Source: an uncultured Rhodothermales bacterium (GTDB lineage Bacteria; Bacteroidota; Rhodothermia; Rhodothermales; JANQRZ01). Taken from it: a stretch of 48,377 nt of DNA. Shown here one piece after another: positions 12,636 to 45,709 of the stretch. Position 1 is the stretch's first letter. The number at the start of each line of letters is the position of its first letter. Under the pieces are notes generated by a model. That model worked only from the letters and a program-made list of their open reading frames with translations, did no database searches and had not been told where the DNA came from. The translations under genes were made by a program, and so were the position numbers. The stretch is taken from contig CAYTJT010000003.1 in NCBI GenBank assembly GCA_964438105.1, positions 1 through 48,377 of the forward strand. The letters run 5' to 3'.

Positions 12636-12741
12636 CGAGCCCCGCGCACGATCGGAAGCCGCCCCGTCCCTGGCCGTCGCTCGGCCGAGAGGGCCGGGCG
12701 GCTTCCGCGCTCTACCCTGGTGAGCCAACGACACCCTGCAG

Positions 12742-13161: not shown

Positions 13162-13259
13162 AGCCTCGACGCACGGTTACGTTGGAGTAGAGAGGGGGCA
13201 CACAGAGAGCAGAAGACGTAGGGCAGTGACCGAGACGAACGACACTACACGCAGCCGGG

Positions 13260-27492: not shown

Positions 27493-29316
27493 ATGAGCGA
27501 CGTGCACAAAAACGTTGGCCTCCACATCACCTCCGACCCCGATACGACCTCGGTCACGCAGCCCGGCCGGGGCGCCCAGCGTCGAGCGGCGCCGATGCCG
27601 CTGCGCCTCCTGCTCGTCGCCGACCTCGCGCCGCAGCTGCGCCCCACGCGCACCGAAGAGCGCGTGCGCCGCGTGGACGCCAACAGCTTCGCGGAGTTGA
27701 TGGGGGACTGGCAGCCCGCGCTCCGCCTCGACGTGGAGAACCGGCTGAGCGCGCAGCCGCAGTCGCTGGAGATCGGGCTGCGCTTCACCTCGCTGAAGGA
27801 CTTCGCGCCCGCCGCGATCGCGCGACAGGTCCCGGCGCTCGCGCGCCTGCTCGCGATCCGCACCGAGGTCCACGGCGTCCGCACGAAAGGGACCGACCGC
27901 GAGACGTTCCGCGACCGCCTCGGCGAGGCCGGGGTCGACGCGGCCTCGGCCGACGGGCTCTACGGCCAACTGACCGTCGAGCCGCCGAAGCCGAAGCCCG
28001 CGCCGAAGCCTCAAGAGGACGACGCCATCGACCGGCTGATGGGGATGGTGGATGCGGGCGACGGAGCGAGTGACGAGCCGCCGCGCACCGCCGGCGACGC
28101 CCTCGCCGAAGCTGTTTCGGACGGCGCGCCACGGATCGCCACGTCGGCGGCCGACGAGATCCTGGAAGACTTCGACCGGAAGCTCGGCGGCCAGCTCCGC
28201 GCGATCCTCGAGCACCCGGACCTGCGCCGGCTCGAAGCGGCGTGGCGTGGGCTGAGGCTGCTCGTGGACCGCCTCCCGTTCCGCGAGGGCGTTCAGCTCG
28301 ACGTGCTCCCCGCGCGGCGCGACAGCCTCAGCGAGACGATCTATCACCAGGTGCTCATCCCCGAGCACGAGGCCGACGGAGCGGGCGACCCGCTCGCGGC
28401 CGTGATCCTCGGCTTCGCCTTCGACAACGGCCAGGCCGACGTCGAGTTGCTCGGGGATATCGCCGAGACGGGGGCGAGCCTGCAGGTCCCGTTCATCGCC
28501 TCGGCGAGCCCGACCTTCTTCGGCTTCGAGTCGGCCGAATCGATCGAGGCGCTGCCGTTCGTGCCGCAGCACGTCCAGGGGCCGGAGTACATCCATTGGA
28601 ATAAGCTGCGCGAGCGGGAAGACGCGCGGCACGTCGTGCTCGCCTTCCCGCCGTTTCTGCTGCGGGCGCCCTACGGCCGGGAGCATCCGTCGAAAGAGGT
28701 GCCGGTGGACGAGGAGGGGTTCCTGTGGGGCGGGGGAGCGCTGGCCGTCGCCCTCGGCATCGGGGACTCGTTTGCGGAGACCGGCTGGCCGACGCACCCC
28801 GCCGGGCGCCGCGTCGGGGACCTCCCGATCCGCGCGACGGAGCGAGGGCAGACGCCGCTGGCCGTTCTGCTGCCCGAGGCGAAAGCGGCGGAGCTGGCCG
28901 ACGTCGGCTTCGTCCCCCTCACCGGCGCGGCTGACCGCGACTGGGTGCAGGTCGCGCGGACGCCCACGCTGGCACGCCCCCAGACCTTCGACGACGCTAC
29001 GAAAACGGCGCACGCGGCGGCGCACGCGACGCTGCCCTGCGGGCTGTTCACGGCCCGCGCGGCCCACCGTATCCTGAAGCTGCCCGCCGAGTTGGACGCC
29101 GAGGCGCCGCTGGAGGCGAAACGGGAAGCCATCGTGAACCGCCTCCGTACGTTCCTGGGGGGGGACCTCGCGGCCGACGCCGTGACGGCGGACCCGGTCC
29201 CGGACGCCGAGGTCGAGGGGCACGACCTGCTAGCCGTCCGTCTTCAGCCGCCCCGGCACGTGCTCGACACGCCGGTGCATCTCGCTATCGGGTTGCCGGT
29301 GCCCCGGGGGGCGTGA
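27493..29316 (+). CDS. Fused TssB-like/TssC-like sheath paralog (single 607-aa polypeptide)
   Basis: Residues about 34-125 align with TssB at 9882..10406: PMPLRLLLVADL vs ELPMRLMILGDY, and FTSLKDFAPAAIARQVPALARLLAIR vs IDSMDSFNPEEVAKQVPQLNRMLAMR. Residues about 216-607 align with TssC residues about 80-510: HPDLRRLEAAWRGLRLLVDR vs HHDAFQEMESSWRSLKFLVDR, LAFPPFLLRAPYG vs LTFPRFMLRLPYG, and VGFVPL vs LGFVPL. A Pro/Ala/Asp-rich linker joins the halves. Confidence 0.75.
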   Translation: MSDVHKNVGLHITSDPDTTSVTQPGRGAQRRAAPMPLRLLLVADLAPQLRPTRTEERVRRVDANSFAELMGDWQPALRLDVENRLSAQPQSLEIGLRFTSLKDFAPAAIARQVPALARLLAIRTEVHGVRTKGTDRETFRDRLGEAGVDAASADGLYGQLTVEPPKPKPAPKPQEDDAIDRLMGMVDAGDGASDEPPRTAGDALAEAVSDGAPRIATSAADEILEDFDRKLGGQLRAILEHPDLRRLEAAWRGLRLLVDRLPFREGVQLDVLPARRDSLSETIYHQVLIPEHEADGAGDPLAAVILGFAFDNGQADVELLGDIAETGASLQVPFIASASPTFFGFESAESIEALPFVPQHVQGPEYIHWNKLREREDARHVVLAFPPFLLRAPYGREHPSKEVPVDEEGFLWGGGALAVALGIGDSFAETGWPTHPAGRRVGDLPIRATERGQTPLAVLLPEAKAAELADVGFVPLTGAADRDWVQVARTPTLARPQTFDDATKTAHAAAHATLPCGLFTARAAHRILKLPAELDAEAPLEAKREAIVNRLRTFLGGDLAADAVTADPVPDAEVEGHDLLAVRLQPPRHVLDTPVHLAIGLPVPRGA

Positions 29317-29490
29317 CCGTCCGGGAGGCCATCCGTTTCCCGGGATCGACCGGGGCGGTGGCCTATCGCAGGGACGAACCACGTTACCCTTCCAAGGGAT
29401 AGGCACCGATTCTATATTGCTCTCCCCCTTGCCTTATTGGAGTAAACGACGTTAGCCTAACCACGCCCCGCTTTCTCCCAACGACATCCC

Positions 29491-31185
29491 TTGAGCGCTT
29501 CTCACTCATCGTCCTCCCAGCCGGTGGAGGCGCGGCCCGCCGTACGGGCTCGCGTCGAGGGGAGCTCTCTGCCCGGGATGGAGCGGTCGTTCACCGAGCC
29601 GTTCACGATAGGGCGGGGCATGCAGGCGACGCTGCACGTGGATTCCGGACGCGTGAGCCGGATCCACGCGGAGGTGGTCTTCAGCGGCGGCGCGTGGCTG
29701 CTCCGCGACGCCGGGAGCACGAACGGGACCTACCACGACGGCGAGCGGATCGAAACTATACAATTGGAGGGAGACGTCGTGGTGCGGCTCGGGCGGGAAG
29801 GCCCCACCGTGTACCTCAGCGTCGATCCAACGGCCGCAGAGGGGACGGGCCGAGCGACCGCGGTCAGCGAGAACACTCCGTTCCTGAGCAGCTTCAGTGA
29901 GCCCTCCGCGGCCGAGGACGGAGACGCGACGTCGCCGCAGCGGCCGAGCGGGGCGTATCGGGCGGCGGATGGGGAGGTGCCCGGCGGCGCTCCGTCTGTC
30001 CCTCCGGTGCCCCCGAGAGCGGACGCGCCGGACACCCATTCCGTGAGCCAGGTAATCCGGCGTTACTTCAACGCGGAGGACGACGAGGCGGCGGGGGATC
30101 GGACGCGGATGATCCGGCAGGCGTACCAGCAGGTGCAGGCCGAGCAGAAGCGGACGTACGGCGGCATCATCGGCATCGTCGCGCTGCTGCTCGTCGTCGC
30201 GCTGGGCTTCGCCGTCTGGCAGCAGATCCGGGTGGAGCGGCTGGAGCAGACCGCGCAGGGGCTGTTCTACGAGATGAAGGAGCAGGACCTCGCGACGGCC
30301 CAGCTACGCCTCGTGGCCGAGGAGACCGGCAACGCCGACCTCGAAGCCCAGCTCGACGACCTGGAGGAGCGGCGCGTCCGCCAGGCGGCGCTCTACGAGG
30401 GGTACATCGAAGAGCTCGGCGTGTACCGCTCGCTCTCGCCGCAGGAGCGCGAGATCTACCGCGTCGCGCGGATCTTCAACGAGAGCGAGTTCTCGATCCC
30501 GGCGGGGTTCGTGCGCGAGGTGAAGGGGGTCATCAGCGAGTGGCAGAAGTCCAGCCGGTTCGAGAACGCGATCCTGCGCGCCGAGCGCAACGGCTACACC
30601 CCCATCATCGTCCGCACGATGAAGGAGTACGGGCTGCCGCCCGAGTTCTTCTACCTCGCCATGCAGGAGAGCAACTTCAACGAGTGCGCCGTCGGGCCGG
30701 AGACGCGGTGGGGCATCGCCAAGGGGATGTGGCAGTTCATCCCCACGACGGGGCAGGCCTACGGGCTGTCCCCCGGCCCCCGCAGCGACATCCGCGTCTG
30801 CGACGAGCTCGACGACCGCCACGACTTCTCTAAGGCCACCGACGCCGCCGCGCGGTACCTCCTGAACATCTACACCGAGCTGGCGCAGGCCTCGGGCCTG
30901 CTCGTGATGGCGTCCTACAACTGGGGCGAGCACCGCGTCTCCTCCAAACTGGACCGGCTGCCGGAGACCCCGCTCGAACTCGTCCGCCGCGACCTCGAAG
31001 ACATCCCGGCGAACCCGCAGCAGCGCAACTACTGGCGGTTCCTCAACGAGTACCGCGACCGGATGCCGGAGGAGACGAAGAACTACGTCCTCCACATCTT
31101 CGCCGCCGCCGTAATCGGGCAAGACCCCCGCCTCTTCGGGTTCGACTTCGACAACCCGCTGGCGCCCTACCTTCAAGGCCCCTGA
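29491..31185 (+). CDS. FHA domain - TM helix - periplasmic coiled coil - lytic transglycosylase (SLT) fusion protein
   Basis: FHA: FTIGRGMQATLHVDSGRVSRIHAEVVFSGGAWLLRDAGSTNGTYHDGERI. TM: IIGIVALLLVVALGFAVW. SLT: FYLAMQESNFNECAV...GIAKGMWQFIPTTG...MASYNWGE. The track start is TTG at 29491; GTG at 29524 is an alternative. The first ATG (29578) would cut into the FHA fold. Confidence 0.8.
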   Translation: MSASHSSSSQPVEARPAVRARVEGSSLPGMERSFTEPFTIGRGMQATLHVDSGRVSRIHAEVVFSGGAWLLRDAGSTNGTYHDGERIETIQLEGDVVVRLGREGPTVYLSVDPTAAEGTGRATAVSENTPFLSSFSEPSAAEDGDATSPQRPSGAYRAADGEVPGGAPSVPPVPPRADAPDTHSVSQVIRRYFNAEDDEAAGDRTRMIRQAYQQVQAEQKRTYGGIIGIVALLLVVALGFAVWQQIRVERLEQTAQGLFYEMKEQDLATAQLRLVAEETGNADLEAQLDDLEERRVRQAALYEGYIEELGVYRSLSPQEREIYRVARIFNESEFSIPAGFVREVKGVISEWQKSSRFENAILRAERNGYTPIIVRTMKEYGLPPEFFYLAMQESNFNECAVGPETRWGIAKGMWQFIPTTGQAYGLSPGPRSDIRVCDELDDRHDFSKATDAAARYLLNIYTELAQASGLLVMASYNWGEHRVSSKLDRLPETPLELVRRDLEDIPANPQQRNYWRFLNEYRDRMPEETKNYVLHIFAAAVIGQDPRLFGFDFDNPLAPYLQGP

Positions 31186-31235
31186 GGAGCGGCGCGTGTC
31201 CCGCAGCTTCCTCCCGACCCCTGACCTGTTGCCTC

Positions 31236-31997
31236 ATGCTGTGGAAGCGCTCCCCCCGCTCTCTGTCCATCCGCTTCGGCGCTAAGTCGGACGTCGGCCA
31301 GGTCCGTTCGGAGAACCAGGACGACTACGGTCGTTTTCCCGAGGTCCGGGCCGAGCGCAACGGGGATCAGGTGTTCATTGTAGCCGACGGGATGGGGGGG
31401 CACGAAGACGGCGGGCAGGCGAGCCGATCGGCTGTGGAGGCGGTTCGCGACACGTACTTCGAGGACCGGGAGGCCCCGGTGGAAGACCGGCTGCGCCGGG
31501 CGGTGCAGGAGGCGAACACCCGGGTCTACGCGTTCGCGCAGAGCGGGGAGATCCCCAAACGGATGGGCACCACGTGCACCGTCCTCGCGGTCGTGCACGG
31601 CGAGGCCTACCTCGCGCACGTTGGGGACAGCCGGGCGTACCGCATCGGGCGGAAGGGCATGACGCAGCTCACGCGGGACCACACCCTCGTCGAAGCCCTG
31701 ATGCGGGAGGGCGTGCTGACGGAGGCGGAGGCGGCGCAGCACCCGCAGCGGCACGCGCTCGTCCGCGCCATCGGCATCCAGCCCGACGTCGACGTCGACG
31801 TCGAGCGGCTCGCGACCCCGCAGTCCGGCGACGCGTTTCTACTGTGCTCCGACGGCCTCTCCCGCGTCAAGGATGCGGAGATCGGCGACATCGTCCGCGC
31901 CGAGACGCCGCAGCAAGCCGCCGAATCGCTCGTGCGCATCGCCAACGAGCGGGGGGGGCACGATAATGTGACGGTACTAGTGGTTAAGATTGAGTAG
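31236..31997 (+). CDS. pppA: PP2C-family Ser/Thr phosphatase (PppA-like)
   Basis: Motifs SDVGQVRSENQD, VADGMGGH, GTTCTV, HVGDSRAY, LLCSDGL, GGHDNVTVLVV. Confidence 0.9.
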   Translation: MLWKRSPRSLSIRFGAKSDVGQVRSENQDDYGRFPEVRAERNGDQVFIVADGMGGHEDGGQASRSAVEAVRDTYFEDREAPVEDRLRRAVQEANTRVYAFAQSGEIPKRMGTTCTVLAVVHGEAYLAHVGDSRAYRIGRKGMTQLTRDHTLVEALMREGVLTEAEAAQHPQRHALVRAIGIQPDVDVDVERLATPQSGDAFLLCSDGLSRVKDAEIGDIVRAETPQQAAESLVRIANERGGHDNVTVLVVKIE

Positions 31998-32059: not shown

Positions 32060-34045
32060 ATGCCTGATACGATCATCGGCCAAGAAATAGACGGCTTCCA
32101 AATCCTCGACGAGTTGGGGCGGGGGGGGATGGGCGTCGTCTACAAGGCCGAGGACGTAGCCCTCGCGCGGCCGGTCGCGCTCAAGATGATCGCCCGCGAC
32201 CTCGCCCGCGACGAGTCGTTCGTGCGGCGGTTCCGCTCCGAGGCACGGGCGCTCGCCCGCATCAACAGCTCCTACATCACGTCGATCTACGCCCTCCGCC
32301 GCACGGATCTGGGCATCTTCATCGTGATGGAGTTCATCGGCGGTGGCACGCTCGGCGACATGATGGAGCGGGGCCCGCTGAAGTGGTCCGCGATCCGCCC
32401 CGTCGTGCTGGAGATGATCACGGCGCTCGAACACGCCCACGGCGTCGGCATCATCCACCGCGACATCAAGCCGGGCAACATCCTCATCACCGAGAGCGGC
32501 CACGTCAAGGTCACGGACTTCGGCCTCGCCAAGCTCCACGCGGCCGACAAGGCGGCGACGGTGACGCAGGGGATCGCCGGGACGCTCTACTACATGTCGC
32601 CGGAGCAGGTCAAGGGCGAGCGGAACCTGGACGGGCGGAGCGACCTCTACGCCCTCGGCGTGACGATCTACGAAGCGCTCAGCGGTCGCCTCCCGTTCGA
32701 CCGGGGCGGCAGCGAGTTCTCGACGATGCGGAAGATCGTGGAGGACCCGTACCCGCCGCTCGGGCAGTTCGTGCCGGACCTCCCGCCGGGTCTCGAAGCG
32801 GCGGTGATGAAGGCGCTCGAGAAGAACGCCGACGACCGCTACCCGAACGCGGCGGCCATGCGGGCCGCCTTCGAGGCCATCCCCGGCGGTGCCGCCCCCC
32901 GGGCGGGCGGCGCGCAGCCCTCACGGCGGGAAGCCGAGACGGTCGTGGCAGGCGCGGCATACGATGAGCAGCCTGCTTCGCCGGTCGCGGCGTCCGCCAC
33001 CCCGGCCCGGCCGAACCGCAAGCTGATGGTCGGGGGCGGCGTGCTGGCCGCGGTCGTGCTGGTGGCGCTCGCCTTCTTCCTGTGGCCCTCCGGCCCCACG
33101 ACGCCGCTCAGCGTGACGACCGATCCGCCCGGCGCCGCGGTGTACTTCGACGGTCGCTCGCTCGGGCGAACGCCGCTGGACGCCGATGTCGAGGGCGATG
33201 GTGGCAGGCTGCGCGTCGAGCGGGTGGGCTACGCGATCCTCGACACGACGATCGCCTTCGCCGAGGGCGAGCCGCTGGCGCTCAACCTCCCGCTCGTGCC
33301 CGTCCCCGAGGGCGATGCGCCCGTAGCAATGCTCGAAGTGGAGTCGAGTCCTTCTGGCGCCACGGTGTACGTCAACGACGAGCGCGTCGGCGAGACGCCG
33401 TACACCCACCGCGACAGCAGCGGGCGCCCCGTCGCCGTGCGCGTCGAGCGCGCGGGCTACCAGCCGTACATCCGGCGGGGCATCCTCCTCCAACCGGGCG
33501 AAACGACGCCCCTGCAAGCCGACCTCTCGCGGATAGAAACGGCGTCTACCCAGCCGAGCCCCATCGAGACGCCCACCACCACGGGCACCGACGATCCGCC
33601 TCCGGCCCAGTCCTTCGGCACACTCGCCGTCACGAACCCCGGAGGAGCAATCCGTGTCGCCGGGCAAAGCGCCCAGGGGAGCGACCAGTTCCGGCTCCCC
33701 GCCGGAACGCACACCGTCCGTTGCGAAAGCCCGAACTATGAGCCTTTCGAGGCGCCCGTCCAGGTTCGCGCCGGGGAGGAGAGGGCCGTCACGTGTCACT
33801 TCCAGGCGCGAGTCAACGTTAACTCGACACTGGAGGGCGGAGGGCCCCTATGGGGTGCCATCTGGGTGGACGGGCGCAACACCGGTTCTACGACGCCGAC
33901 TGTTCTGACCCTCGGCCCTGGGACGTATACGGTCGGGGTGAGGCGCGACGGGTACCAGACGCTCGAACCGTCACGGACGGTTTCCATCGAGCCGGGGCTG
34001 GAGCAGCAGACCGAGCGGCTGACATTCACCTTGCGAAGAGAGTGA
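32060..34045 (+). CDS. ppkA: Hanks-type Ser/Thr kinase with TM helix and periplasmic PEGA-like domains (PpkA-like)
   Basis: GRGGMGVVYKA, VALKMI, HRDIKPGNIL, DFGLAK, GTLYYMSPE. TM is LMVGGGVLAAVVLVALAFFLW. Three PEGA-like units: VTTDPPGAAVYFDGRSLGRTP, VESSPSGATVYVNDERVGETPY, GAIWVDGRNTGSTTP. Confidence 0.9.
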   Translation: MPDTIIGQEIDGFQILDELGRGGMGVVYKAEDVALARPVALKMIARDLARDESFVRRFRSEARALARINSSYITSIYALRRTDLGIFIVMEFIGGGTLGDMMERGPLKWSAIRPVVLEMITALEHAHGVGIIHRDIKPGNILITESGHVKVTDFGLAKLHAADKAATVTQGIAGTLYYMSPEQVKGERNLDGRSDLYALGVTIYEALSGRLPFDRGGSEFSTMRKIVEDPYPPLGQFVPDLPPGLEAAVMKALEKNADDRYPNAAAMRAAFEAIPGGAAPRAGGAQPSRREAETVVAGAAYDEQPASPVAASATPARPNRKLMVGGGVLAAVVLVALAFFLWPSGPTTPLSVTTDPPGAAVYFDGRSLGRTPLDADVEGDGGRLRVERVGYAILDTTIAFAEGEPLALNLPLVPVPEGDAPVAMLEVESSPSGATVYVNDERVGETPYTHRDSSGRPVAVRVERAGYQPYIRRGILLQPGETTPLQADLSRIETASTQPSPIETPTTTGTDDPPPAQSFGTLAVTNPGGAIRVAGQSAQGSDQFRLPAGTHTVRCESPNYEPFEAPVQVRAGEERAVTCHFQARVNVNSTLEGGGPLWGAIWVDGRNTGSTTPTVLTLGPGTYTVGVRRDGYQTLEPSRTVSIEPGLEQQTERLTFTLRRE

Positions 34046-34131
34046 GCGGACAGATCCGCGCTCTGCCTTACTTTGCAGTCCGCCGCAATGCGAAGTCTTT
34101 ACTACTCAACGTCATATCGAGGTGCTCAGTC

Positions 34132-35145
34132 ATGCTCTCAATCTCATTCCGCACGGCATGCGCGGTGATCTGTCTGTTCGCAGTGTCGGTCGGTACGGCG
34201 CAGGCGCAGGACGCCGCGCTCGAGAAGGCCATCGAATCCTACAACTCCGCCGAGTACGACCAGGCGATCAGCAGCTTCGCCGCGCTCGTCGAGGACGCCT
34301 CGACCGATAAGAGCGTGAAGAAGGAAGCGCTGCAGTACCTCGGCCGCGCCTACGTCGCCAAGCAGGCCTACAGCGACGTCCGCACGACGATCGACCGCCT
34401 GCTCGACCTAGAGCCGCCGCTCGTCGAGCTCGACCCGGAGACCGAGCCGCCGGACCTCATGGAGCTCTACTACGAGGTGCGCCGCGACTACACCGGCTAC
34501 GAGGTCGAGCGCCCCGACCCGGGCATGAAGACGCTCGCGGTGATGGATTTCACGAACACCTCGGTGGACGAGAAGGAACGCTTCGACCCGATGCAGCAAG
34601 GCTTCGCCTCGATGATGATCAACTACCTCGAGGGGTCGACCGACCTCAAGGTGATCGAGCGCGAGCGCGTCCAGTGGCTCCTCGACGAGCTGGAGCTCCA
34701 GCGCGACGCCGGTCTCGTGGATCAGGCGTCGGCCGTGCGGACGGGCAAGCTGCTCGGGGCGACGGCCGTGCTCTTCGGCGCCTTCACCGTCCACGGCAAG
34801 CAGATGTGGCTCTCGGCCCGGCTCGTGAAGGTCGAGACCGGGGAGATCCTCCTCGCCGAGCAGATCTTCGGCAACAAGGACGACTTCTTCGAGCTCGTCG
34901 AGGACCTGTCGGACCAGGTCACCGAGGCCATCGGGGTCGAGCTCGCGAGCGCATCGGGCGGCGACGAGCAGTCGCGCTCGCTCGACGCCGTGCTCTCATA
35001 CTCCCAAGGGCTGGGGCTGATCGAGCAGGAGAAGTATCAGGAGGCCTACGACAAGTTCATCGAAGCGCTCGAGTACGACCCCAGTTACGCAGACGCGCGG
35101 CGGAGGGCCGAGAGCCTGAGGCCTCAACTCGCGCAACTGGGCTAA
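34132..35145 (+). CDS. Secreted TPR + CsgG/LpoB-like domain protein (paralog 1)
   Basis: Start is an internal ATG of track ORF 33850..35145, which otherwise overlaps ppkA. Signal peptide MLSISFRTACAVICLFAVSVGTAQA. Core KTLAVMDFTNTS...LKVIERERVQWLLDELELQRDAGLVD...GKLLGATAVLFGAF is the CsgG/LpoB-type fold signature. TPR-like helices flank it on both sides. Confidence 0.6.
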   Translation: MLSISFRTACAVICLFAVSVGTAQAQDAALEKAIESYNSAEYDQAISSFAALVEDASTDKSVKKEALQYLGRAYVAKQAYSDVRTTIDRLLDLEPPLVELDPETEPPDLMELYYEVRRDYTGYEVERPDPGMKTLAVMDFTNTSVDEKERFDPMQQGFASMMINYLEGSTDLKVIERERVQWLLDELELQRDAGLVDQASAVRTGKLLGATAVLFGAFTVHGKQMWLSARLVKVETGEILLAEQIFGNKDDFFELVEDLSDQVTEAIGVELASASGGDEQSRSLDAVLSYSQGLGLIEQEKYQEAYDKFIEALEYDPSYADARRRAESLRPQLAQLG

Positions 35146-35208
35146 CCGCACCTGCAGCCTATCCCGGGCGCTCCGCGCCCGAGAGCCACCCCGTTTCGGA
35201 CTCCGCCT

Positions 35209-36525
35209 ATGTCCCGTGGATTTGCTCTCCTGACCCTCCTGGCCTTCGGCACGCTGACGGCGTGCGCGCCGACCACCCAAGTCGGGGACGATCCGATGGC
35301 GTCCGTCGACGCGGAGCAACTCGACCGGGCCATCGAGCGGGCCCGCGCCGACCTCACGCGCCGGCCTGAGGAGGCACGGATCCTCCGCGACCTCGGCGCC
35401 CTCCTCGCCCTCGCCGAGCGGTTCGACGAAGCGGGGCGTTACCTCCGTCAGGCCTACGTCGAGGACACCTCCGACCCCAAGACGCTCTACTTCCTCGGCC
35501 TCGTGAATGAAGCCGAAGGCGACCCGGGAGAGGCGCTCGAGTTTTACGGGCGCTTCCCGTCGGTCTCGGTGCGCTCGTCCTACCGTTCGCTACTGCAAGG
35601 GCGGTACGAGTACCTCGTCCGCGAGCGGCTGCGCGCCGAGGTGGAGCAGATCGCCGCGCGCGAGGATACGCTCGCCGCGGGCGAGGCGTCGTTGCAGACC
35701 GTGGCCGTGTTCCCGTTCGCCTACCTCGGGGACGAGCCCCGGTACGCGCCGCTCGGCCGGGGGCTCGGCGAGATGGTGCAGGCGGACCTCGCAGGCATCA
35801 GCACGCTGCAAGTGGTCGAGCGGCTCCGGCTGCAGGCGCTCCTCGACGAGCTCGAGCTCGCGCAGTCCGACGCCTTCGATCCGGCGGCGACGCCGCGCGT
35901 GGGGCGCCTCTTGCGCGCGGGCCGCGCCGTCGGCGGCTCCTTCGACGTGACCGACCGCGACCTCCGCATCGACGCGGCGCTGTGGGAGCTGGAGACGGAG
36001 CCCTCCCCCGACCTGCAGACGCGCTCGGACGACCTCGACGAGCTGTTCGACCTCAAGCGCGAAGTCGTGCTCGCCCTCGTCGAGCAGATGGGCCTCCAAC
36101 TCACGGCCGAAGAGCGGGCCTTCCTCGACCGGGTCCCGACGCGCAGCATCCAAGCCTTCCTGCTGTACTCGCGCGGGCTCGAAGAGGAGGACGCCGGCAA
36201 CTTCGCCCTGGCCGCCCAGCAATTCCGGCAGGCGGTGAAGGCCGACCCCTCCTTCGAGCAGGCAGCAGCCGGTGCGGACCGTGCCGCCGCCGTGGATCAG
36301 GCCGGAGGCTCCATCGAGCAGGGGCTCAGCGCGGCCGCTGATCTCGAAGACTTCGGTGGGATCGACCTCGTGGGCAGCCGCCTCCGGAAGCTCAACGACA
36401 GCGTGGGGGCCTCGTTCCTGCCTGGCGCCGAGGGAAACCGGGACAACCCGGCCGGAGAAGCTGCGGCCGCCCGTGACATATTCGAACCCCTTCCCCCTCC
36501 ACCCGCGCCGCCGGGCGGGAACTGA
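35209..36525 (+). CDS. Lipoprotein, TPR + CsgG/LpoB-like domain (paralog 2)
   Basis: Lipobox LLAFGTLTA|C. Core TVAVFPFAYLGDE...LQVVERLRLQALLDELELAQSDAFD...GRLLRAGRAVGGSF parallels the upstream gene. Flanking TPR-like helices. Confidence 0.6.
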   Translation: MSRGFALLTLLAFGTLTACAPTTQVGDDPMASVDAEQLDRAIERARADLTRRPEEARILRDLGALLALAERFDEAGRYLRQAYVEDTSDPKTLYFLGLVNEAEGDPGEALEFYGRFPSVSVRSSYRSLLQGRYEYLVRERLRAEVEQIAAREDTLAAGEASLQTVAVFPFAYLGDEPRYAPLGRGLGEMVQADLAGISTLQVVERLRLQALLDELELAQSDAFDPAATPRVGRLLRAGRAVGGSFDVTDRDLRIDAALWELETEPSPDLQTRSDDLDELFDLKREVVLALVEQMGLQLTAEERAFLDRVPTRSIQAFLLYSRGLEEEDAGNFALAAQQFRQAVKADPSFEQAAAGADRAAAVDQAGGSIEQGLSAAADLEDFGGIDLVGSRLRKLNDSVGASFLPGAEGNRDNPAGEAAAARDIFEPLPPPPAPPGGN

Positions 36526-36548
36526 CTCACTGCCGAACGACGATCCTT

Positions 36549-38240
36549 ATGACCTACAAGACGATACTCCGAGGGCCCCTCGTGTTGCTGCTCGCCGCGC
36601 TCGTGCTCAGCGCGGGAGCGCGCGCGCAGGACTGCGACTTCGAGTTCGAGGACGTCTGCGTCGAACTGCCCAACGGCATTCCCACGCCGGGCCGCGCGTT
36701 GAGCGTCGTCGTGACGGTGTCGGGGCCGGTGCCGGGGGATGGAAGGCTCTTCTACCGTCCGACGGGGGGAGGGAGCTACGCCGAGATCGTGCCGGCGCAG
36801 GCGGGGAACCGATACAGCGTCAGCGTCCCGGCCGAAGCCGTGACCGTCCGAGGGCTCGACGTATACGGCTCCTACCTTTCTGCCGATGGGGAGGAGTTCT
36901 TCTACCCTGAAGAGAACCCGGTGGAAGACCCCATCCACGTCCCCGTGTACATCGGGTCGTTCACCATCCCCGTCGAGTTGCAGGCACGGGAGTACCGGAT
37001 GATCTCCGTCGCGGCGAACGTGGGGACGGCGTCGGTCGTGGACGTGCTCGAAGACGATTTCGGCGTGCAGGATGTGGCGCGGTGGCGATTGATCCGATGG
37101 AACCCCGCGACCAACAGCTACGACGAGCTTCCCAACGTGACGAACTCGTTCAGCGACGGCGCGGCGTTCTGGATCATCACGGCCGACGGCGGCACCTTCG
37201 ACATCGACGTGTCCGAGTCGACGAACCCGGACTCGCTGCCGGCGATCACGCTCGCGCCGGGACTCAATCAGATCGGCAACCCGTATGCCTTCCCCGTTGC
37301 GTGGGACGCCGTGCGCGGGGCGCGCGCCATCGGTTCGCTGCTGGAGTTCGTTCCCGAGAACAACTCGTACCGGGAGGCGACGACGCTCGAACCGTGGACG
37401 GGCTACTTCGTCGAGAACTTCGAGGGCACGGCGGTGAGCCTCGCCGTCCCTGACCAGGAGTCCGTCGGCGGCGCGGCGCAGGGCCCCGAGACCAGCTACG
37501 CGGTGCGCGTCGAAGCGCGGGCGGGGGAGTACGTCGACTCGAACAACGTGGTCGGGTTCGCCGCGGCGGCCACGCCAGGGCACGACCGGCTGGACCTCGG
37601 CGAGCCGCCGCCCATCGGCGCGCACGTCGGCGTCAGCGTGGTCGAGCAGGGGCGCCGCGCGATGCGGAGCCTCAAGCCGCCGAGCGCCGACGGTGCAATG
37701 TGGGATTTGGAGGTGACCGCGACTGCGGGCCTACTCGATGATGGACCGCGCCAAGTGTCGCTCACGCTTCGAGAGGAAGACGTGCGACCGGCCGGCTTCG
37801 ACCTGTACGTGATCGACCGCGACCGGGGAACGGCCGTCGCGCTCACCGACGGCGCGCTCGACCTCACGCTGAGCGCCGAGCAGCCCGTACGCCGCCTCCG
37901 GCTGATCGCGGGCACCGAAGCCTTCGCCTCGGCGGAGAGCGAGGGGGCCCCGCTGTCTCCCACGGCCTTCGCGCTCGCTCCCGGCTACCCCAACCCCTTC
38001 GCCGCGCAGACGACCATCAGCTACCAGTTGGAGGAGCGCGGCGCTGCCACGCTCGAAGTGTTCGACCTCCTCGGCCGCCGCGTCCGCGTGCTCGCAGAGG
38101 GCGAGCAGTCGGCGGGCTCGCACACGATCGCGTGGGACGGCCGTGACGCCGCGGGCCGCCCCGTCGCCAACGGCGTGTACCTCGTTCGCCTTCGCACCGG
38201 TGACGCTTCGGCGACGCGCCGGGTGTCCGTCCTCCGCTAA
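36549..38240 (+). CDS. Secreted protein with T9SS type-A C-terminal sorting domain
   Basis: Signal peptide MTYKTILRGPLVLLLAALVLSAGARAQ. The last ~85 aa (GYPNPFAAQTTISYQL...LEVFDLLGRRVRVL...GSHTIAWDGRDAAGRPVANGVYLVRLRTGD...RRVSVLR) match the Por-secretion-tail pattern. The remainder is not recognised. Confidence 0.75.
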   Translation: MTYKTILRGPLVLLLAALVLSAGARAQDCDFEFEDVCVELPNGIPTPGRALSVVVTVSGPVPGDGRLFYRPTGGGSYAEIVPAQAGNRYSVSVPAEAVTVRGLDVYGSYLSADGEEFFYPEENPVEDPIHVPVYIGSFTIPVELQAREYRMISVAANVGTASVVDVLEDDFGVQDVARWRLIRWNPATNSYDELPNVTNSFSDGAAFWIITADGGTFDIDVSESTNPDSLPAITLAPGLNQIGNPYAFPVAWDAVRGARAIGSLLEFVPENNSYREATTLEPWTGYFVENFEGTAVSLAVPDQESVGGAAQGPETSYAVRVEARAGEYVDSNNVVGFAAAATPGHDRLDLGEPPPIGAHVGVSVVEQGRRAMRSLKPPSADGAMWDLEVTATAGLLDDGPRQVSLTLREEDVRPAGFDLYVIDRDRGTAVALTDGALDLTLSAEQPVRRLRLIAGTEAFASAESEGAPLSPTAFALAPGYPNPFAAQTTISYQLEERGAATLEVFDLLGRRVRVLAEGEQSAGSHTIAWDGRDAAGRPVANGVYLVRLRTGDASATRRVSVLR

Positions 38241-38245
38241 CCCCG

Positions 38246-39349
38246 ATGCCCGTGAGACGCCCCATACTCGCGCTTCTTCTCTTCGCCCTGGCCGCGCCCG
38301 CCGCGCAGGCCCAGCAGCCCTCCGCGCTCTACGCCGACGCGGACCGCCAGCCGATCCTCATCACCGTAGAAGGGCTCTACCAGCAGTTCTCCAACGACGG
38401 CGAGGACATCAGCGAGGTGAGCGTGCCCCTCGGCCTCCGCCTGCCCGTCGGGAACAACATCGCGCTCAGCCTGCAGACGAACTACGCGGCCGTGAGCGGC
38501 AGCGACATCGCGTCCGTCTCCGGCATCGGCGACGTGCAGGCCATCGCGAGCTATTTCCAGCCCGTGGGCGAGGCCAGTCTCGTCCTCAGCATCGGCTTCA
38601 ACGCGACGACCGGCAACAGCGCGCTCACGTACGAGGAGTTCCAGACCTCCACGCTCGCGGGCCAGACGGCCTACGACCTCCGCGTGCCCACGTTCGGGCA
38701 GGGCATCCGCGTGGCCCCGGCCGTCACCTACGCCTTCCCCGTCAACGACCGCCTCGCGCTCGGGCTCGGCGCGTCGTACCAGTACCGCGGGCCGTACGAA
38801 CCCCTCGAAGACGTGTCCGACTCGTACGATCCGGGCGAAGAGGTGCTGCTCACCGCCGGCGCCGACCTCGAGATCACGCCCACCTCGTCGTTCTCCATCG
38901 ACCTCTCGTTCGGGATCAACGGCACCGATTCGTTCGGGCCGGAGGGGAACGTGAGATCGTACGAGCCGGGCAACACGATATCCGCGACGGGGCAGTACCT
39001 CCTGCTGCTCGGGTTCCACGAGGTCCGCGCGGTCGCGCGCTACCGGGGGCGCGGGGAGGGGGCGCTGCCCGAGTCGAGCGCCACCGCCGAGACCGCGGTC
39101 CCGACGCAGTTCCTGTTCTTCGCCGACGGCCGGTTCGCGCTCACCCCGGTGGTCGGTCTCGGCGTTCGTCTTCGGGCGCGCTACTACGACGCGAGCGCGC
39201 TGTTCGAGGACGCGCAGACCCTCTTCGACGTCGGCATCCGCCCGGCCGTGGCAGTAACCGATCAGGTCGGGCTAACGGCACGGTTCGACTACACGCTCGG
39301 GAGCTTCAGCGGGTTCACGGCGGGGGGGGGGCTGCGCCTGTCGTTCTGA
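38246..39349 (+). CDS. Putative outer-membrane beta-barrel protein
   Basis: Signal peptide ...LLLFALAAPAAQAQQ. Alternating amphipathic strands and a C-terminal aromatic ending GGGLRLSF. Start is 5 nt after the upstream stop. Confidence 0.5.
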   Translation: MPVRRPILALLLFALAAPAAQAQQPSALYADADRQPILITVEGLYQQFSNDGEDISEVSVPLGLRLPVGNNIALSLQTNYAAVSGSDIASVSGIGDVQAIASYFQPVGEASLVLSIGFNATTGNSALTYEEFQTSTLAGQTAYDLRVPTFGQGIRVAPAVTYAFPVNDRLALGLGASYQYRGPYEPLEDVSDSYDPGEEVLLTAGADLEITPTSSFSIDLSFGINGTDSFGPEGNVRSYEPGNTISATGQYLLLLGFHEVRAVARYRGRGEGALPESSATAETAVPTQFLFFADGRFALTPVVGLGVRLRARYYDASALFEDAQTLFDVGIRPAVAVTDQVGLTARFDYTLGSFSGFTAGGGLRLSF

Positions 39350-39448: not shown

Positions 39449-39940
39449 ATGCCCCTGTTCCAGCGTATCCTCGTTCCGTTCGATTTCTCTCGCCTCGCCG
39501 AGCAGGGGGTGGAATACGCCGAGAGGATGGCGAAGCAGTACGGCGCCCATCTCGATGTTTTGCATGTGGTTGAGGAGCCGGCCTTCCCGTCGTTCTTTAA
39601 GCTCGGCGCCATGCGGATCTACGGCATGGTCCCGAACCAGGAGAAGGTGGCGTGGACGGCGCTCGAAAAGCGATTCGGGAATCCTGAGGAGCAGCAGAAT
39701 CTGGAGTTCCACGTCGTCAAGGGCAACGCGGATGTCGAGATCGTCCGCTTCGCGAGCGAGCACCAGAACGACCTCATCGTGATGACCTCGCACGGGCTGA
39801 CCGGGTTGCAGCACGTGCTGCTCGGGAGCGTGGCGGAGAAGGTCGTGAAGCTGGCGCCGTGCCCGGTCCTCGTCGTCAAGGCGTTCACGGACCAGACGCC
39901 GCCCGACGAGGTGCTCGGCGCGGCGGAGTCGGCGTCGTAG
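39449..39940 (+). CDS. Universal stress protein (UspA family)
   Basis: RILVPFDFS...LDVLHVV...DLIVMTSHGLTGLQHVLLGSVAEKVVKLAPCPVLVVK is canonical Usp. Confidence 0.85.
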   Translation: MPLFQRILVPFDFSRLAEQGVEYAERMAKQYGAHLDVLHVVEEPAFPSFFKLGAMRIYGMVPNQEKVAWTALEKRFGNPEEQQNLEFHVVKGNADVEIVRFASEHQNDLIVMTSHGLTGLQHVLLGSVAEKVVKLAPCPVLVVKAFTDQTPPDEVLGAAESAS

Positions 39941-40043
39941 CGGATCGCCGAATGGTGCCGTCGGCGCGGGAGCCGATGGTGTGGTGGTACGTTACAGAGG
40001 GCGCTCTGCTTGGGACGCCCAGACGACTACGTACCCGCCACTT

Positions 40044-41684
40044 ATGTCGAACCCCGCCCTCCTCGTCGTCGACGACGACCCCGACGTGCTCCGCGCGATT
40101 GCGCGCGACCTCCGGCGGCGCTACGGAAAGGACTACCGCGTCCTGCGCGCGTCGTCGGCAGACGAGGGGTTGACCGCGCTCGACGAGCTCAAAGAGCGCG
40201 GCGATCCCGTCGCGCTGCTGCTCTCGGACCAGCGCATGCCCCGGATGAACGGGGTCGAGTTTCTGAGCGAGGCGATGCGGCGCTTCCCGAAGAGCAAGCG
40301 CGCCCTCCTCACGGCCTACGCCGACACGCAAGCCGCCATCGACGCGATCAACCAGTCGCAGGTGGACTACTACCTCCTCAAGCCGTGGGACCCGCCGGAG
40401 GAGCGGCTCTACCCGGTCCTCGACGACCTCCTCGCCGACTGGCGCGCCGGGTATCGCCCGGGCTACGGCGGCGTCCGCGTCGTCGGGAGTCGGTGGTCGT
40501 CGGACGCGCACCGGATCAAGGATTTCCTCGCGCGGAACGCCGTCCCGTACCAGTTCATCGACGTCGAGAGCGAGGAGGCGGCCGACATAGACGTGGGCGA
40601 AGGCGGCCTCCCGCTCGTGATCCTGCCCGAGGGCGAGCGGATGGCGTCGCCGACGGCGCAGGCCCTCGCCGAGCGCCTCGGCCTCCGGACGAGCGCCGGC
40701 GCCGACTTCTACGACCTCGCGATCGTCGGCGGCGGGCCGGCGGGGCTCGCGGCGGCGGTCTACGGCGCGTCCGAAGGGCTGCGGACCGTGCTCGTCGAGC
40801 GCGAAGCGCCGGGCGGGCAGGCCGGCACGTCGAGCAACATCGAGAACTACCTCGGCTTCCCGTCGGGGTTGTCCGGGGCCGACCTCGCCCGCCGCGCCGT
40901 CACGCAGGCCGAGCGCTTCGGCGTCGAGATCGTCGCGCCGCAGGAGGCCGAGCGCCTCACCGTGGACGGCCCGTACAAGCGCCTCCACCTCGCCGACGGC
41001 AGCGAGATCGCGTGCCACGCGCTGATGCTCGCGATGGGGGTCTCGTGGCGCAAGCTGCCCGCCGACGGCGCCGACCGGTTCAGCGGGCGCGGCGTCTACT
41101 ACGGCGCGGCGATGACCGAGGCGATGAGCTGCCGCGACGAGTCGGTCTACATCGTCGGGGCGGGCAACTCGGCGGGGCAGGCGGCGATGTACTTCGCCGA
41201 GTACGCCGAGCGCGTCGTCATGCTGATCCGGGGCGACGACCTCGGCAAGAGCATGAGCCACTACCTCGTCGAGCGGATCGAGGCGCACGAGCGGATCGAC
41301 GTGCTGCTGAACACCGAAGTCGCGGCGTGCTGCGGCGGCGAGCACCTCGAGAGCCTCGTCCTCCGGAACCGAGAAACGGGGGAGGAGGAGGAGATCGAGA
41401 CGCGCTACCTCTTCGTCTTCATCGGCGCCGCGCCGCGCACCGACTGGCTCGACGGCGTCGTCGTGCGCGACGAGCGCGGGTTCGTCCTCACCGGCCCCGA
41501 CCTCGCAGACGGCCACCTCGACGGCTGGCCCCTCGAGCGCGAGCCGTTTCTGCTAGAGGCGAGCATCCCCGGTGTGTTCGTCGCGGGCGACGTCCGGCAC
41601 GAGTCCGTCAAGCGCGTGGCGAGCGCGGTCGGCGAGGGCTCCGTCGCCGTCCACTTCATGCACCAGCACCTCGCGACGCTGTGA
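40044..41684 (+). CDS. Response-regulator receiver domain fused to thioredoxin-reductase-like FAD oxidoreductase
   Basis: Start is an internal ATG of track ORF 39981..41684. REC: LLVVDDDPDVL...LLLSDQRMPRMNG. FAD/NAD folds: DLAIVGGGPAGLAAAVY and VYIVGAGNSAGQAAMYF. The TrxR CxxC position reads TEAMSC, with a single Cys. Confidence 0.85.
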   Translation: MSNPALLVVDDDPDVLRAIARDLRRRYGKDYRVLRASSADEGLTALDELKERGDPVALLLSDQRMPRMNGVEFLSEAMRRFPKSKRALLTAYADTQAAIDAINQSQVDYYLLKPWDPPEERLYPVLDDLLADWRAGYRPGYGGVRVVGSRWSSDAHRIKDFLARNAVPYQFIDVESEEAADIDVGEGGLPLVILPEGERMASPTAQALAERLGLRTSAGADFYDLAIVGGGPAGLAAAVYGASEGLRTVLVEREAPGGQAGTSSNIENYLGFPSGLSGADLARRAVTQAERFGVEIVAPQEAERLTVDGPYKRLHLADGSEIACHALMLAMGVSWRKLPADGADRFSGRGVYYGAAMTEAMSCRDESVYIVGAGNSAGQAAMYFAEYAERVVMLIRGDDLGKSMSHYLVERIEAHERIDVLLNTEVAACCGGEHLESLVLRNRETGEEEEIETRYLFVFIGAAPRTDWLDGVVVRDERGFVLTGPDLADGHLDGWPLEREPFLLEASIPGVFVAGDVRHESVKRVASAVGEGSVAVHFMHQHLATL

Positions 41685-41704
41685 CTGTGCTAACGGAATG
41701 GAGA

Positions 41705-41769
41705 GCGTGGAAAGGATGGAGGGGGTGGAGGGAGTGCTAGCCCTCTTTCTCCCTCCATTCTCTCCACGC
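41705..41769 (+). other. Long imperfect hairpin (purine-rich arm, then pyrimidine-rich arm) in the intergenic region before kef
   Basis: GCGTGG (41705-10) pairs with CCACGC (41764-69). GGATGGAGG (41714-22) pairs with CCTCCATTC (41752-60, one G-U). GGAGGG (41727-32) pairs with CCCTCT (41741-46). The loop is agtgctag. Confidence 0.4.
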
Positions 41770-41798
41770 CTCCCTTGCCCTCCTCACCGATTCACGTC

Positions 41799-44147: not shown

Positions 44148-44158
44148 CCCCGCCGCCG

Positions 44159-45616
44159 ATGGACCTCCCGACGATGGATCTCCCATTCGAATACACCTCT
44201 GGCCCCGTCCCCGTCGACGAAGTCCGCACGGTCCCCACGTTGGAAGGGCTCGACGACGCGTTCTTCGACTGGCTCAGCGAGCACGGCGTGTATCTCGAGA
44301 TCCCCGCTGGCGAAAAGATGTTTCACGCGGGGATGGCGGCGGAGCAGATGATGATCCAGCTCGATGGCGCCGTGCAACTCGTCCTCGACGTGGGCGGGCA
44401 GCCGTTGCTCTACGACACGTTCCGCGGCGAGCGCATCACCGGGATGCTGCCGTACTCGCGGATGACGGAATACACGGGGACGGGGCTCGTGACCGAGCCC
44501 GTCCGCGTCGTGATGGTGTGGAAAAAGGACTTCCCGGCGATGCTGGACACGAGCGAGGAGCTCGGCCGCCGCCTCGTCGCGCTCATGAGCGACCGCGTGC
44601 GCGAGGCGACGCGCAGCTCGCAGCAGCGCGAGAAGATGATGGCGCTCGGCAAGCTCTCCGCCGGGCTCGCCCACGAGCTCAACAACCCCGCCGCCGCCAT
44701 CCGCCGCGCCGTCTCCGACCTCGAAGAGCGCATCGCGGCCCTGCCCGAACTCGTGGCGCGGATGAGCGAGCACGGGCTCACGCCCGACCAGGTTCGGCAG
44801 GCGAACAGCGTGCGGGCCGAAGTCGGGGCGAAGGGGGAGAACCTGCTCGCGCTCTCGACCGTGGAGCGCGGCGAGCGCGAGGACGAACTCGCCGACCAAC
44901 TCGACATGCTGGGCATGGACGACGGGTGGCGGCTCGCCGAAGCGCTCGTCGACAAGGGCTTCACGCCGGACTGCCTGCTCGACATCGCTAGCGATCTGGA
45001 CGAGACGGCGGTGCCCGACGTGGTGCGCTGGGTCGAGGGCGGGATCGCGGCGGAGCGGCTGCTCGGCGAGATCAGCTCGGCCGCGGGCCGCATCGCCGAC
45101 CTCGTCGCGTCGATCAAGACGTACTCACACATGGACCAGGCGCAGGTCTGCCAGCCCACGGACGTGGCGGAGGGCATCGACTCGACGCTGACGATGCTCG
45201 GGCACAAGTTCAAAACGCGCGACGTCCGTCTCGTCCGCTCGATTCCCGACGACCTCCCACGCGTGCCGGCCTACCCCGGCGAGCTGAACCAGGTCTGGAC
45301 GAACCTGCTCGACAACGCGCTCGACGCCGTCGAGCCGGGCGGGACGATTGAGGTCGCAGCCGAGGTGCGGGGGGCGTACCTCTGCGTGTCCATCGCCGAC
45401 GACGGTTCCGGGATTCCCGAGGAGATCCAGTCGCGCATCTTCGAGCCGTTCTTCACGACGAAGGGCGTGGGCGAGGGGACCGGCCTCGGTCTCGACGTGG
45501 TGCAGCGGATCGTGCAGCAGCAGCACAGCGGCACGCTCGAGCTGGAGTCCGAGCCGGGGCGGACCGTCTTCACCGTCTGCCTCCCGCTCGACGAGGACGG
45601 CATCGTCGGGGAGTGA
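44159..45616 (+). CDS. Sensor histidine kinase with N-terminal cyclic-nucleotide-binding-like domain
   Basis: Start is an internal ATG of track ORF 43919..45616. cNMP-like beta-barrel region. H-box [15 protein letters not shown]. HATPase_c: [22 protein letters not shown]. Confidence 0.85.
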
Positions 45617-45619
45617 AAT

Positions 45620-45642
45620 CCCCGCGCGCCGCGCGCGCCGGG
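45620..45642 (+). terminator. GC-only hairpin just after the histidine-kinase stop (possible terminator, no U-tract)
   Basis: In ccccgcgcgccgcgcgcgccggg, a 6-bp GCGCGC stem with a 3-nt loop extends by 3 more C-G pairs across a 1-nt bulge. It is followed by caacaatcg, not a T-run. Confidence 0.2.
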
Positions 45643-45709
45643 CAACAATCGCAGGGGGCCTCGGTACGACCCCACGCTCCTCCACCTCCCGCTCCCAATC
45701 CGCTTTCGT

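Follow-up and report, generated by a model that had tools for sequence, protein, structure and literature searches.

How does a bacterium that builds a type VI secretion system (T6SS) bring the membrane complex of this machine, an assembly of about 1.7 MDa, across the peptidoglycan, and what decides where the wall is opened? The passage has been explained in two cases only, with the lytic transglycosylase MltE that enteroaggregative Escherichia coli borrows and with the endopeptidase TagX. The question is raised anew by a stretch of 48,377 nucleotides from an uncultured Rhodothermales bacterium (contig CAYTJT010000003.1, positions 1 to 48,377; "the window" in the following), which holds inside a T6SS cluster a gene for a protein that combines a phosphothreonine-reading FHA domain, a transmembrane helix, and a lytic transglycosylase domain (FHA-LT; 29524..31185, like all features below on the forward strand). 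This joining of an FHA reader to a peptidoglycan-cleaving enzyme linked to the T6SS is a novel variation on known kinds of protein, and it belongs to a widespread, uncharacterised family of which the literature that we searched gives no description. We propose, with about an even chance of being right, that FHA-LT is a lytic transglycosylase recruited by phosphorylation for T6SS membrane-complex insertion; kinase signalling may in this way control where the wall opens for the secretion machine.

The original prediction, made from the letters of the window alone, had assigned an FHA domain, a transmembrane helix, and an SLT domain with the motif AMQESNF to the longest open reading frame at this gene (29491..31185; 564 aa from a TTG codon in the window's list of open reading frames), and profile searches, the hydropathy plot, and an AlphaFold2 model all confirm this architecture. 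In the numbering of the 564-aa frame, Pfam FHA (PF00498) matches residues 39-101 (E 1.4e-13; 51.5 bits, cut-off 20.7) and Pfam SLT (PF01464) residues 375-488 (E 3.5e-14; 52.8 bits, cut-off 21.3). The best-supported start of the gene is likely GTG 29524, which gives a protein of 553 aa that has more than 120 full-length homologues. Three orthologues (P0002, P0005, and P0008) start exactly at the position of this codon, the N-termini of the closest orthologues ("MEARPAF...", "VETRPAV...", "MAARPEL...") align with it, and the first FHA strand ("xRVRVEG") is kept even in homologues of 45-50% identity. The automatic gene call for the identical sequence (P0001, 535 aa) begins at ATG 29578, a start that we rejected because it would remove the first FHA strand, conserved upstream of M30, and because the orthologues begin at GTG 29524. 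Starting there, the FHA domain is complete, which removes the concern, voiced with the prediction, that a start at ATG 29578 would leave no intact one. From here on residue numbers refer to the 553-aa protein, to which the 564-aa numbering adds 11.

The AlphaFold2 model of FHA-LT was built on an alignment of 27 sequences and has a mean predicted local distance difference test score (pLDDT) of 79.8. Its N-terminal part is the FHA domain (residues 1-100; 29524..29823; pLDDT around 95), a beta-sandwich in keeping with the 11-stranded fold of FHA domains, of which residues 7-11 form the first strand. It is followed by an Ala/Pro/Ser-rich linker (residues 106-173; 29839..30042) that is predicted to be disordered, judging from its composition and a pLDDT below 50, and that is unalignable and of variable length in the family. 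Some members have linkers between FHA domain and transmembrane helix that are longer by several hundred residues in a single open reading frame, as in a 995-aa protein (P0180) and in locus L005 (7988..11287), where the insertion amounts to about 540 aa; such variability fits a disordered tether of free length. Next come a conserved juxtamembrane motif (residues 174-212; 30043..30159) with a short helix at 174-182, and the only hydrophobic stretch of the protein, GGIIGIVALLLVVALGFAVWQ, whose 21 residues (213-233; 224-244 in the numbering first used; 30160..30222) hold the Kyte-Doolittle maximum of 2.74, keep a conserved position in the family, and lie within one continuous helix (192-268). Together with a return helix (271-298) the latter forms a helical hairpin or stalk beyond the membrane (residues 234-298; 30223..30417; pLDDT 83-90), on which the helical catalytic domain follows (residues 306-550; 30439..31173; pLDDT 85-95). 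An N-in/C-out topology is predicted from these elements because the protein has one transmembrane helix and no signal peptide, and because an FHA domain has to be in the cytoplasm and a transglycosylase in the periplasm. We infer that FHA-LT is a bitopic inner-membrane protein with a cytoplasmic FHA domain, a flexible linker, a transmembrane helix, a periplasmic stalk, and an active MltD-like lytic transglycosylase domain.

Both ends of the protein carry the hallmarks of their families beyond a profile score above cut-off. When the FHA domain was compared with the Protein Data Bank (PDB) by Foldseek, the closest structure was FHA-1 of Mycobacterium tuberculosis Rv1747 (6ccd; TM-score 0.90, root-mean-square deviation 1.6 Å), and the candidate phosphothreonine contacts G30-R31, S45-R46-I-H48, and S65-T-N67-G68 align with those of this domain. 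The catalytic domain has a goose-lysozyme-like helical fold typical of family 1 lytic transglycosylases and is closest to Pseudomonas aeruginosa MltD (8rhe_B; E 8.5e-6 over 240 columns). Searching PDB sequences with a profile gave the same two top matches (8rhe at E 1.9e-14), with an alignment that places the Glu-Ser of the query on the catalytic ES (IES) of MltD and extends through the C-terminal helices. This catalytic pair, E382-S383, lies in the AMQESNF motif (E382 codon 30667-30669) and is accompanied by two further motifs of the G-x-[MW]-Q and Y-N-x-G types, AKGMWQF and ASYNWGE. The conservation of these residues was assessed in an alignment of 86 family members from at least 8 phyla, in which G30-R31 and H48 are invariant, S45 and N67-G68 are found in 85 members, and R46 in 81; the phosphothreonine-binding residues on which the prediction depended are thus present. 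On the periplasmic side, E382-S383 is kept in 86/86 members, and the AKGxWQF and SYNWG motifs are nearly invariant.

FHA-LT falls outside three families that it resembles in part. Its likeness to MltD is confined to the catalytic domain, since the NCBIfam model for MltD gives 46 bits against a cut-off of 508 and neither lipobox nor LysM is present. It is not a TagH protein, because PF20232 does not match and TIGR03354 reaches 31.6 bits against a cut-off of 120, and it is not a YscD/PrgH protein either, with 25.7 bits against a cut-off of 33.2 for Yop-YscD_cpl and a lytic transglycosylase domain as its periplasmic part.

The gene had been placed directly upstream of pppA-ppkA, and this is what annotation with Pfam returned: a PP2C-type Ser/Thr phosphatase of the PppA/TagG kind follows after a gap of 50 bp (31236..31997; PP2C_2, E 9.5e-18), and after it a membrane-bound Hanks-type Ser/Thr kinase of the PpkA/TagE kind (32060..34045; Pkinase, E 2.2e-46; PEGA, E 8.9e-41). 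The periplasmic part of the kinase has four PEGA repeats and a CarboxypepD_reg-like domain, where PpkA of P. aeruginosa has a domain of the von Willebrand type. The prediction had also asked how often such fusions neighbour T6SS or Hanks kinase genes. Among 39 loci flanked on both sides by at least 8 kb and scored for genes within 10 kb, T6SS core genes were present in 23 and a kinase or phosphatase gene in 31, and in many phyla; of 73 loci whose right flank spans at least 1 kb, 24 have a PP2C gene immediately downstream. The T6SS-linked loci span Rhodothermales, Ignavibacteria, Acidobacteriaceae, Geobacter, and Chromatiaceae, and their members are scattered over the whole neighbour-joining tree of the family. 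FHA-LT is therefore a T6SS-associated gene in the sense of one that is recurrently located in or next to T6SS core genes of unrelated taxa. The TssB-TssC-like to beta-barrel gene block of the window, FHA-LT included, recurs in Rhodothermales metagenome-assembled genomes (MAGs; L001-L005) and on the Salinibacter ruber chromosome, and Ignavibacteria and Thiocapsa share the order ClpV, VgrG, DUF2169, three pentapeptide-repeat genes, DUF3540, PAAR-like, FHA-LT, PppA, and PpkA. The module of DUF2169, three pentapeptide-repeat, DUF3540, and PAAR-like genes in this order (L020 8737..9944; L078 9415..9831; L063) corresponds to the TagAB/TagB/TagC/TagD module of Burkholderia.

The association is not exclusive, and in this respect the predicted T6SS link holds in part: it recurs in many phyla, but 6 of the 39 loci have neither T6SS nor kinase genes in the scored range. 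The neighbours in these six are housekeeping genes, such as a DNA methylase and the peptidoglycan-recycling gene NamZ in L028, so the enzyme can exist without an adjacent T6SS. This speaks for a more general reading, in which FHA-LT would be a lytic transglycosylase under Ser/Thr-kinase control that acts in the growth, division, or turnover of the wall or for envelope machines of other kinds. Its gene would accompany the PpkA/PppA module and owe its proximity to T6SS genes to the shared kinase. Also in its favour are a MAG chromosome with two FHA-LT copies of which a single one lies next to VgrG (L034 versus L061), a relative with a kinase in place of the FHA domain outside a T6SS context (see below), and the precedent of mycobacterial FHA proteins (FhaA/MviN, FipA) that link Ser/Thr kinases to wall synthesis. 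We nevertheless consider it unlikely, given that T6SS core genes at 23 of 39 loci are far above chance for a cluster of about 30 kb in a genome of several Mb, that even in distant phyla the gene holds a fixed place, with the spike/PAAR module on one side and PppA-PpkA on the other, and that T6SS-linked members occur throughout the family tree.

The family is large. Among 5.8 billion proteins, more than 120 clusters were found, all with FHA and SLT domains and mostly from Rhodothermales and Salinibacter, and a profile search of 1.84 billion representatives returned 645 clusters (50% identity) at E <= 1e-30. At the level of genomes, a locus scan with the single protein yielded just 5 close loci; we used an alignment-based scan instead, which found at least 586 FHA-LT loci with one genome per species. 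The best 80 of these come from Rhodothermales (with Salinibacter ruber), Ignavibacteria, Acidobacteriota, Desulfobacterota/Geobacter, Chromatiaceae (with Thiocapsa roseopersicina DSM 217), Nitrospira, Gemmatimonadota, and others, and nearly all of them encode both domains in one open reading frame. A search of a plasmid collection gave partial MltD-type matches only and no full-length FHA-LT, NCBIfam has no model that covers the full-length protein, and the database names of these proteins are generic.

Some family representatives have two FHA domains, and in three others (P0244, P0246, and P0256) the FHA domain is replaced by a Ser/Thr kinase domain on the same module of transmembrane helix and MltD-like transglycosylase, with the catalytic ES kept. 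This swap ties the transglycosylase module to Hanks-type signalling independently of gene neighbourhood; the one genomic context that we saw for such a relative (L095) is not a T6SS locus. The same relatives allow a sensor-type reading, in which the transglycosylase-like domain of FHA-LT would bind peptidoglycan that has been damaged or remodelled, such as by a competitor's attack, or be activated by it, and change the availability or clustering of the FHA domain to scaffold PpkA signalling as a TagQRST-like input branch. A kinase in front of the same module has the receptor-kinase layout of PknB-PASTA, and in the window FHA-LT heads a conserved block with PppA, PpkA, two CsgG/LpoB-like lipoproteins, a beta-barrel, and a protein sorted by the type IX secretion system (T9SS) that looks like a trans-envelope sensing module. 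The invariant Glu-Ser and the other conserved active-site motifs argue for catalysis over mere binding, an FHA domain has no enzymatic output, and a single transmembrane helix joined to a long disordered linker is ill suited to passing on conformational signals; on balance we regard sensing as distinctly improbable.

Taking recruitment for membrane-complex insertion as the preferred reading, its steps can be outlined as follows. Active PpkA would create phosphothreonine sites, with PpkA itself, TssL or TssM, TagH, and the juxtamembrane Thr194-x-x-Ile of FHA-LT as candidates. The FHA domain would dock on such a site, and FHA-LT would thereby be recruited to the nascent T6SS, clustered there, or both. 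The periplasmic domain would then cut glycan strands locally so that the large TssJLM complex could pass the peptidoglycan mesh, and PppA would reverse the recruitment. Of all this, the domain architecture, the conservation of binding and catalytic residues, and the genomic linkage to T6SS and to kinase and phosphatase genes are observed, and the topology, the phosphothreonine ligand, the enzymatic activity, and the requirement for the T6SS are inferred. The window itself provides a context of need, which we count in favour of this reading: its TssL consists of the DotU domain only (243 aa), and Pfam and NCBIfam scans found no OmpA-like, peptidoglycan-binding, or other peptidoglycan-active gene besides FHA-LT in the T6SS locus.

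The last of the candidate ligands deserves closer attention, since the juxtamembrane motif (SVSQVIRRYF...AGDR-T194-RM-I197-R-QAY across residues 174-212) is conserved next to an otherwise unalignable linker. Its consensus is Y181-F...G191-[ED]-[HR]-T194-x-x-[IV]197-R198-x-A200, with T194 in 84 of the 86 members, Y181 and G191 in 83 each, R198 in 82, and Ile or Val at +3 from the threonine. FHA domains commonly prefer ligands with a T-x-x-I/V spacing, and from its sequence T194 (codon 30103-30105) would be a candidate both for accepting a phosphate and for serving, as a pT-x-x-I site, as an FHA ligand. The motif is absent from the relatives that carry a kinase instead of the FHA domain. A more specific, and in our view rather unlikely, version of the recruitment model builds on this residue as a "peptidoglycan gate" that would license the T6SS site: PpkA would phosphorylate T194, FHA domains of neighbouring molecules would bind it in trans as in Rv1747, the clustered transglycosylase domains would open a hole that nucleates TssJLM insertion, and PppA would dissolve the cluster.

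Several observations weigh against phosphorylation-dependent recruitment to the T6SS, beginning with the six loci without T6SS and kinase genes described above. T194 is lost in some divergent family members, and in the AlphaFold2 model it sits at the N-terminus of the predicted long helix, so its conservation could reflect a helix cap instead of a phosphosite; both points weaken T194 as a universal phosphosite. TagH is already an FHA reader in the cluster, so a second reader needs a role of its own. To our knowledge, most of the T6SSs that have been studied need no dedicated transglycosylase encoded in their locus. Finally, the layout of kinase, transmembrane helix, and transglycosylase resembles receptor kinases with an extracellular sensor and fits sensing equally well.

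The DotU-only TssL and the absence of peptidoglycan-binding domains from the locus are compatible not only with the recruitment of a cutting enzyme but also with a structural role, in which FHA-LT would be a TagL/TagN-like peptidoglycan anchor of the membrane complex that compensates for TssL and for which catalysis is secondary. Lytic transglycosylase domains do bind glycan strands. The peptidoglycan anchors described so far use OmpA-like domains (PMC13584744), whereas the Pfam scan of FHA-LT found neither OmpA nor LysM nor an SPOR-type binding domain, and the complete conservation of the catalytic residues also counts against this explanation, which we judge quite improbable.

The prediction had further noted a separate TagH-type protein at the left edge of the window, and this holds for the C-terminal part of the gene (<1..588), which matches T6SS_FHA_C with 26.6 bits (cut-off 23.7); the part for the FHA domain falls outside the window, upstream of it. 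Full TagH genes (FHA and T6SS_FHA_C) stand directly upstream of TssJ in related clusters (L077, L078, and L005), and two FHA proteins per cluster are a conserved feature. TagH/Fha1 of the P. aeruginosa H1-T6SS and of Agrobacterium likewise has an N-terminal FHA domain with canonical phosphothreonine-binding residues and is encoded in a T6SS locus with PpkA, PppA, and TagF. Where TagH continues with T6SS_FHA_C, FHA-LT has a transmembrane helix and a periplasmic transglycosylase instead, and the coexistence of genuine TagH in the same clusters sets the two apart.

In concept FHA-LT is most like MltE and TagX, and in its apparent use of the FHA domain most like Rv1747 and FhaA. MltE is recruited by TssM for the opening of peptidoglycan in enteroaggregative E. 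coli (Santin & Cascales 2017, as cited in PMC13584744), and TagX is required for the T6SS in Acinetobacter (PMC13584744). The parallel with MltE drawn in the prediction stands insofar as both are family 1 lytic transglycosylases used or proposed to open peptidoglycan for TssJLM insertion, but not for the catalytic domain, which is MltD-like and not MltE-like. MltE is moreover a housekeeping outer-membrane lipoprotein that is encoded outside the T6SS locus and recruited through a periplasmic protein contact, whereas FHA-LT is encoded in the locus, anchored in the inner membrane, and equipped with a cytoplasmic phospho-reader. TagX of Acinetobacter and Burkholderia, needed there for T6SS biogenesis, shares with FHA-LT the encoding in the locus, the inner-membrane anchor, and a periplasmic peptidoglycan-cleaving domain. 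In TagX, however, this domain is an L,D-endopeptidase of the VanY type, which acts on the stem peptides and is no glycan-strand transglycosylase; its fold is unrelated to that of FHA-LT, and TagX has no FHA or signalling domain. MltD of P. aeruginosa (8RHE) and E. coli is the best match in sequence and fold for residues ~306-550, with identities of about 24-26% (26% for E. coli mltD against residues 250-540) and with shared ES, G-x-W-Q, and Y-N-x-G motifs and C-terminal helical extension; it is a lipoprotein with C-terminal LysM repeats, in contrast to the N-terminal FHA, linker, and transmembrane helix of FHA-LT.

The mycobacterial Rv1747 ABC transporter, FhaA-MviN, and FipA/FhaB use FHA domains to tie Hanks-kinase phosphorylation to membrane or wall proteins, and phosphothreonines in their own linkers drive self-association. 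These FHA proteins belong to Actinobacteria, have no peptidoglycan-cleaving domain, and are unrelated to the T6SS. As we propose for FHA-LT, a dedicated lytic transglycosylase is encoded together with a trans-envelope machine in the case of EtgA/IpgF of the type III secretion system (T3SS), VirB1 of the type IV secretion system, and flagellar FlgJ/SltF, though these enzymes are soluble or secreted and have no phospho-reader. YscD/PrgH of the T3SS shows the same layout of FHA, transmembrane helix, and periplasmic domain, the latter made of ring-building motifs and not an enzyme. Literature searches that paired FHA with SLT or with lytic transglycosylase, both alone and together with T6SS, and searches on Salinibacter and T6SS returned no description of the combination found here. 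Salinibacter serves only as an outgroup in a paper on Bacteroidota T6SSs, and in a 2026 review of T6SS accessory genes TagX is the only locus-encoded wall remodeller (PMC13584744). Taken as a whole, the interpretation that came with the prediction is partly supported.

A phosphothreonine reader and glycan-strand cutter encoded in the locus would join the problem of wall crossing with that of how PpkA and PppA lead to site-specific assembly. With about 645 clusters at 50% identity in many poorly studied phyla, the family would add a widespread accessory component to the T6SS, and together with its kinase-fused relatives it would exemplify post-translational Ser/Thr control of a lytic transglycosylase in envelopes of the Gram-negative type. 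Should the gate model be true, the FHA and kinase versions of the module would form the first wall-lytic family of diderms that is gated directly by Hanks-type Ser/Thr signalling. Cultured carriers such as Salinibacter ruber, Rubrivirga, and Thiocapsa roseopersicina make the idea testable.

The window holds a complete T6SS-i cluster around the FHA-LT gene. The order of genes is TagH (C-terminal part), TssJ, TssK, TssL, TssM, TagF, TssA, TssB, TssC, Hcp, an open reading frame at the expected place of TssE, TssF, TssG, ClpV, VgrG, Rhs, a pentapeptide-repeat protein, DUF2169, a TssB-TssC-like fusion, FHA-LT, PppA, PpkA, two CsgG/LpoB-like lipoproteins, a protein with FlgD_Ig domain and T9SS tail, and a beta-barrel. 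The position downstream of VgrG, Rhs, DUF2169, and PAAR-like genes, together with the fact that peptidoglycan glycoside hydrolases are a known effector class, might suggest a secreted antibacterial muramidase or transglycosylase toxin. We rejected this reading as hardly conceivable on the grounds of topology (an N-in transmembrane anchor and a cytoplasmic FHA domain), of the absence of an adjacent immunity gene (the next gene is the phosphatase), and of a conservation and synteny across phyla that are unlike those of polymorphic effectors; PAAR, MIX, or Rhs delivery domains are lacking as well.

The gene directly upstream of FHA-LT (27493..29316; 607 aa) encodes a TssB-TssC-like fusion paralogue that matches Pfam VipA and VipB, is 29% identical to the TssC of the same cluster, and has no Pfam VipB_2 match. 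Members of its family in Rhodothermales, among them those of Salinibacter ruber and Rubrivirga marina, always occupy this place upstream of FHA-LT, with synteny in Rhodothermales and related Bacteroidota (L001-L005, L013, L014, L025, L058, L087, L088, and S. ruber L096). The fusion could be a sheath cap, a regulator, or a partner of FHA-LT. The intergenic region between the two genes (29317..29523) has a G+C content of about 60% compared to about 72% around it, and a scan for sigma-70 promoters and terminators around FHA-LT gave no match upstream, though the region contains a TATATTG-like sequence. A promoter of the Bacteroidota type may lie here, in which case FHA-LT, PppA, and PpkA would be transcribed as a unit of their own. 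In a hypersaline-lake metatranscriptome (run X14), contigs of relatives with about 85-90% identity cover the FHA-LT gene and its junction with the phosphatase gene, with the stretch 30729..31426 running from the last part of the former into the first part of the latter; as DNA carry-over is possible, this gives a weak hint of transcription and co-transcription.

Downstream of the kinase, two paralogous putative lipoproteins with TPR and CsgG/LpoB-like domains (34129..36525; Pfam) are conserved with the block of FHA-LT, PppA, and PpkA, in synteny across Rhodothermales, Ignavibacteria, and unclassified MAGs, and one of them has a weak match to the TssQ family. With a large FlgD_Ig/T9SS-sorting-tail protein and an outer-membrane beta-barrel they make up a block (34129..39349) that is also found in L001, L002, L017, L020, L023, L025, L088, and L096. 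The block has the look of a trans-envelope module that would provide input to the kinase, distinct from TagQRST. Upstream of two of these loci (L017 and L023), Pfam and NCBIfam found only OmpA-like N-termini and one weak match to a T6SS effector family.

At the other end of the cluster, a mechanically called open reading frame (147..1118) overlaps the end of the TagH frame and has its TssJ domain confined to the last third, whereas public gene calls put TssJ at ~642..1118 (158 aa). Between Hcp and TssF, the 156-aa open reading frame at the place of TssE (12720..13190) has no Pfam or NCBIfam match at E <= 0.01; it could be a TssE that has diverged strongly, or another gene. Beyond the end of the T6SS island, near 39349, the region 39449..47146 contains genes of housekeeping type, among them a universal stress protein, a response-regulator/thioredoxin-reductase-like fusion, a TrmA-like methyltransferase, a Na+/H+ exchanger with TrkA and glutaredoxin domains, and a cNMP-binding histidine kinase.

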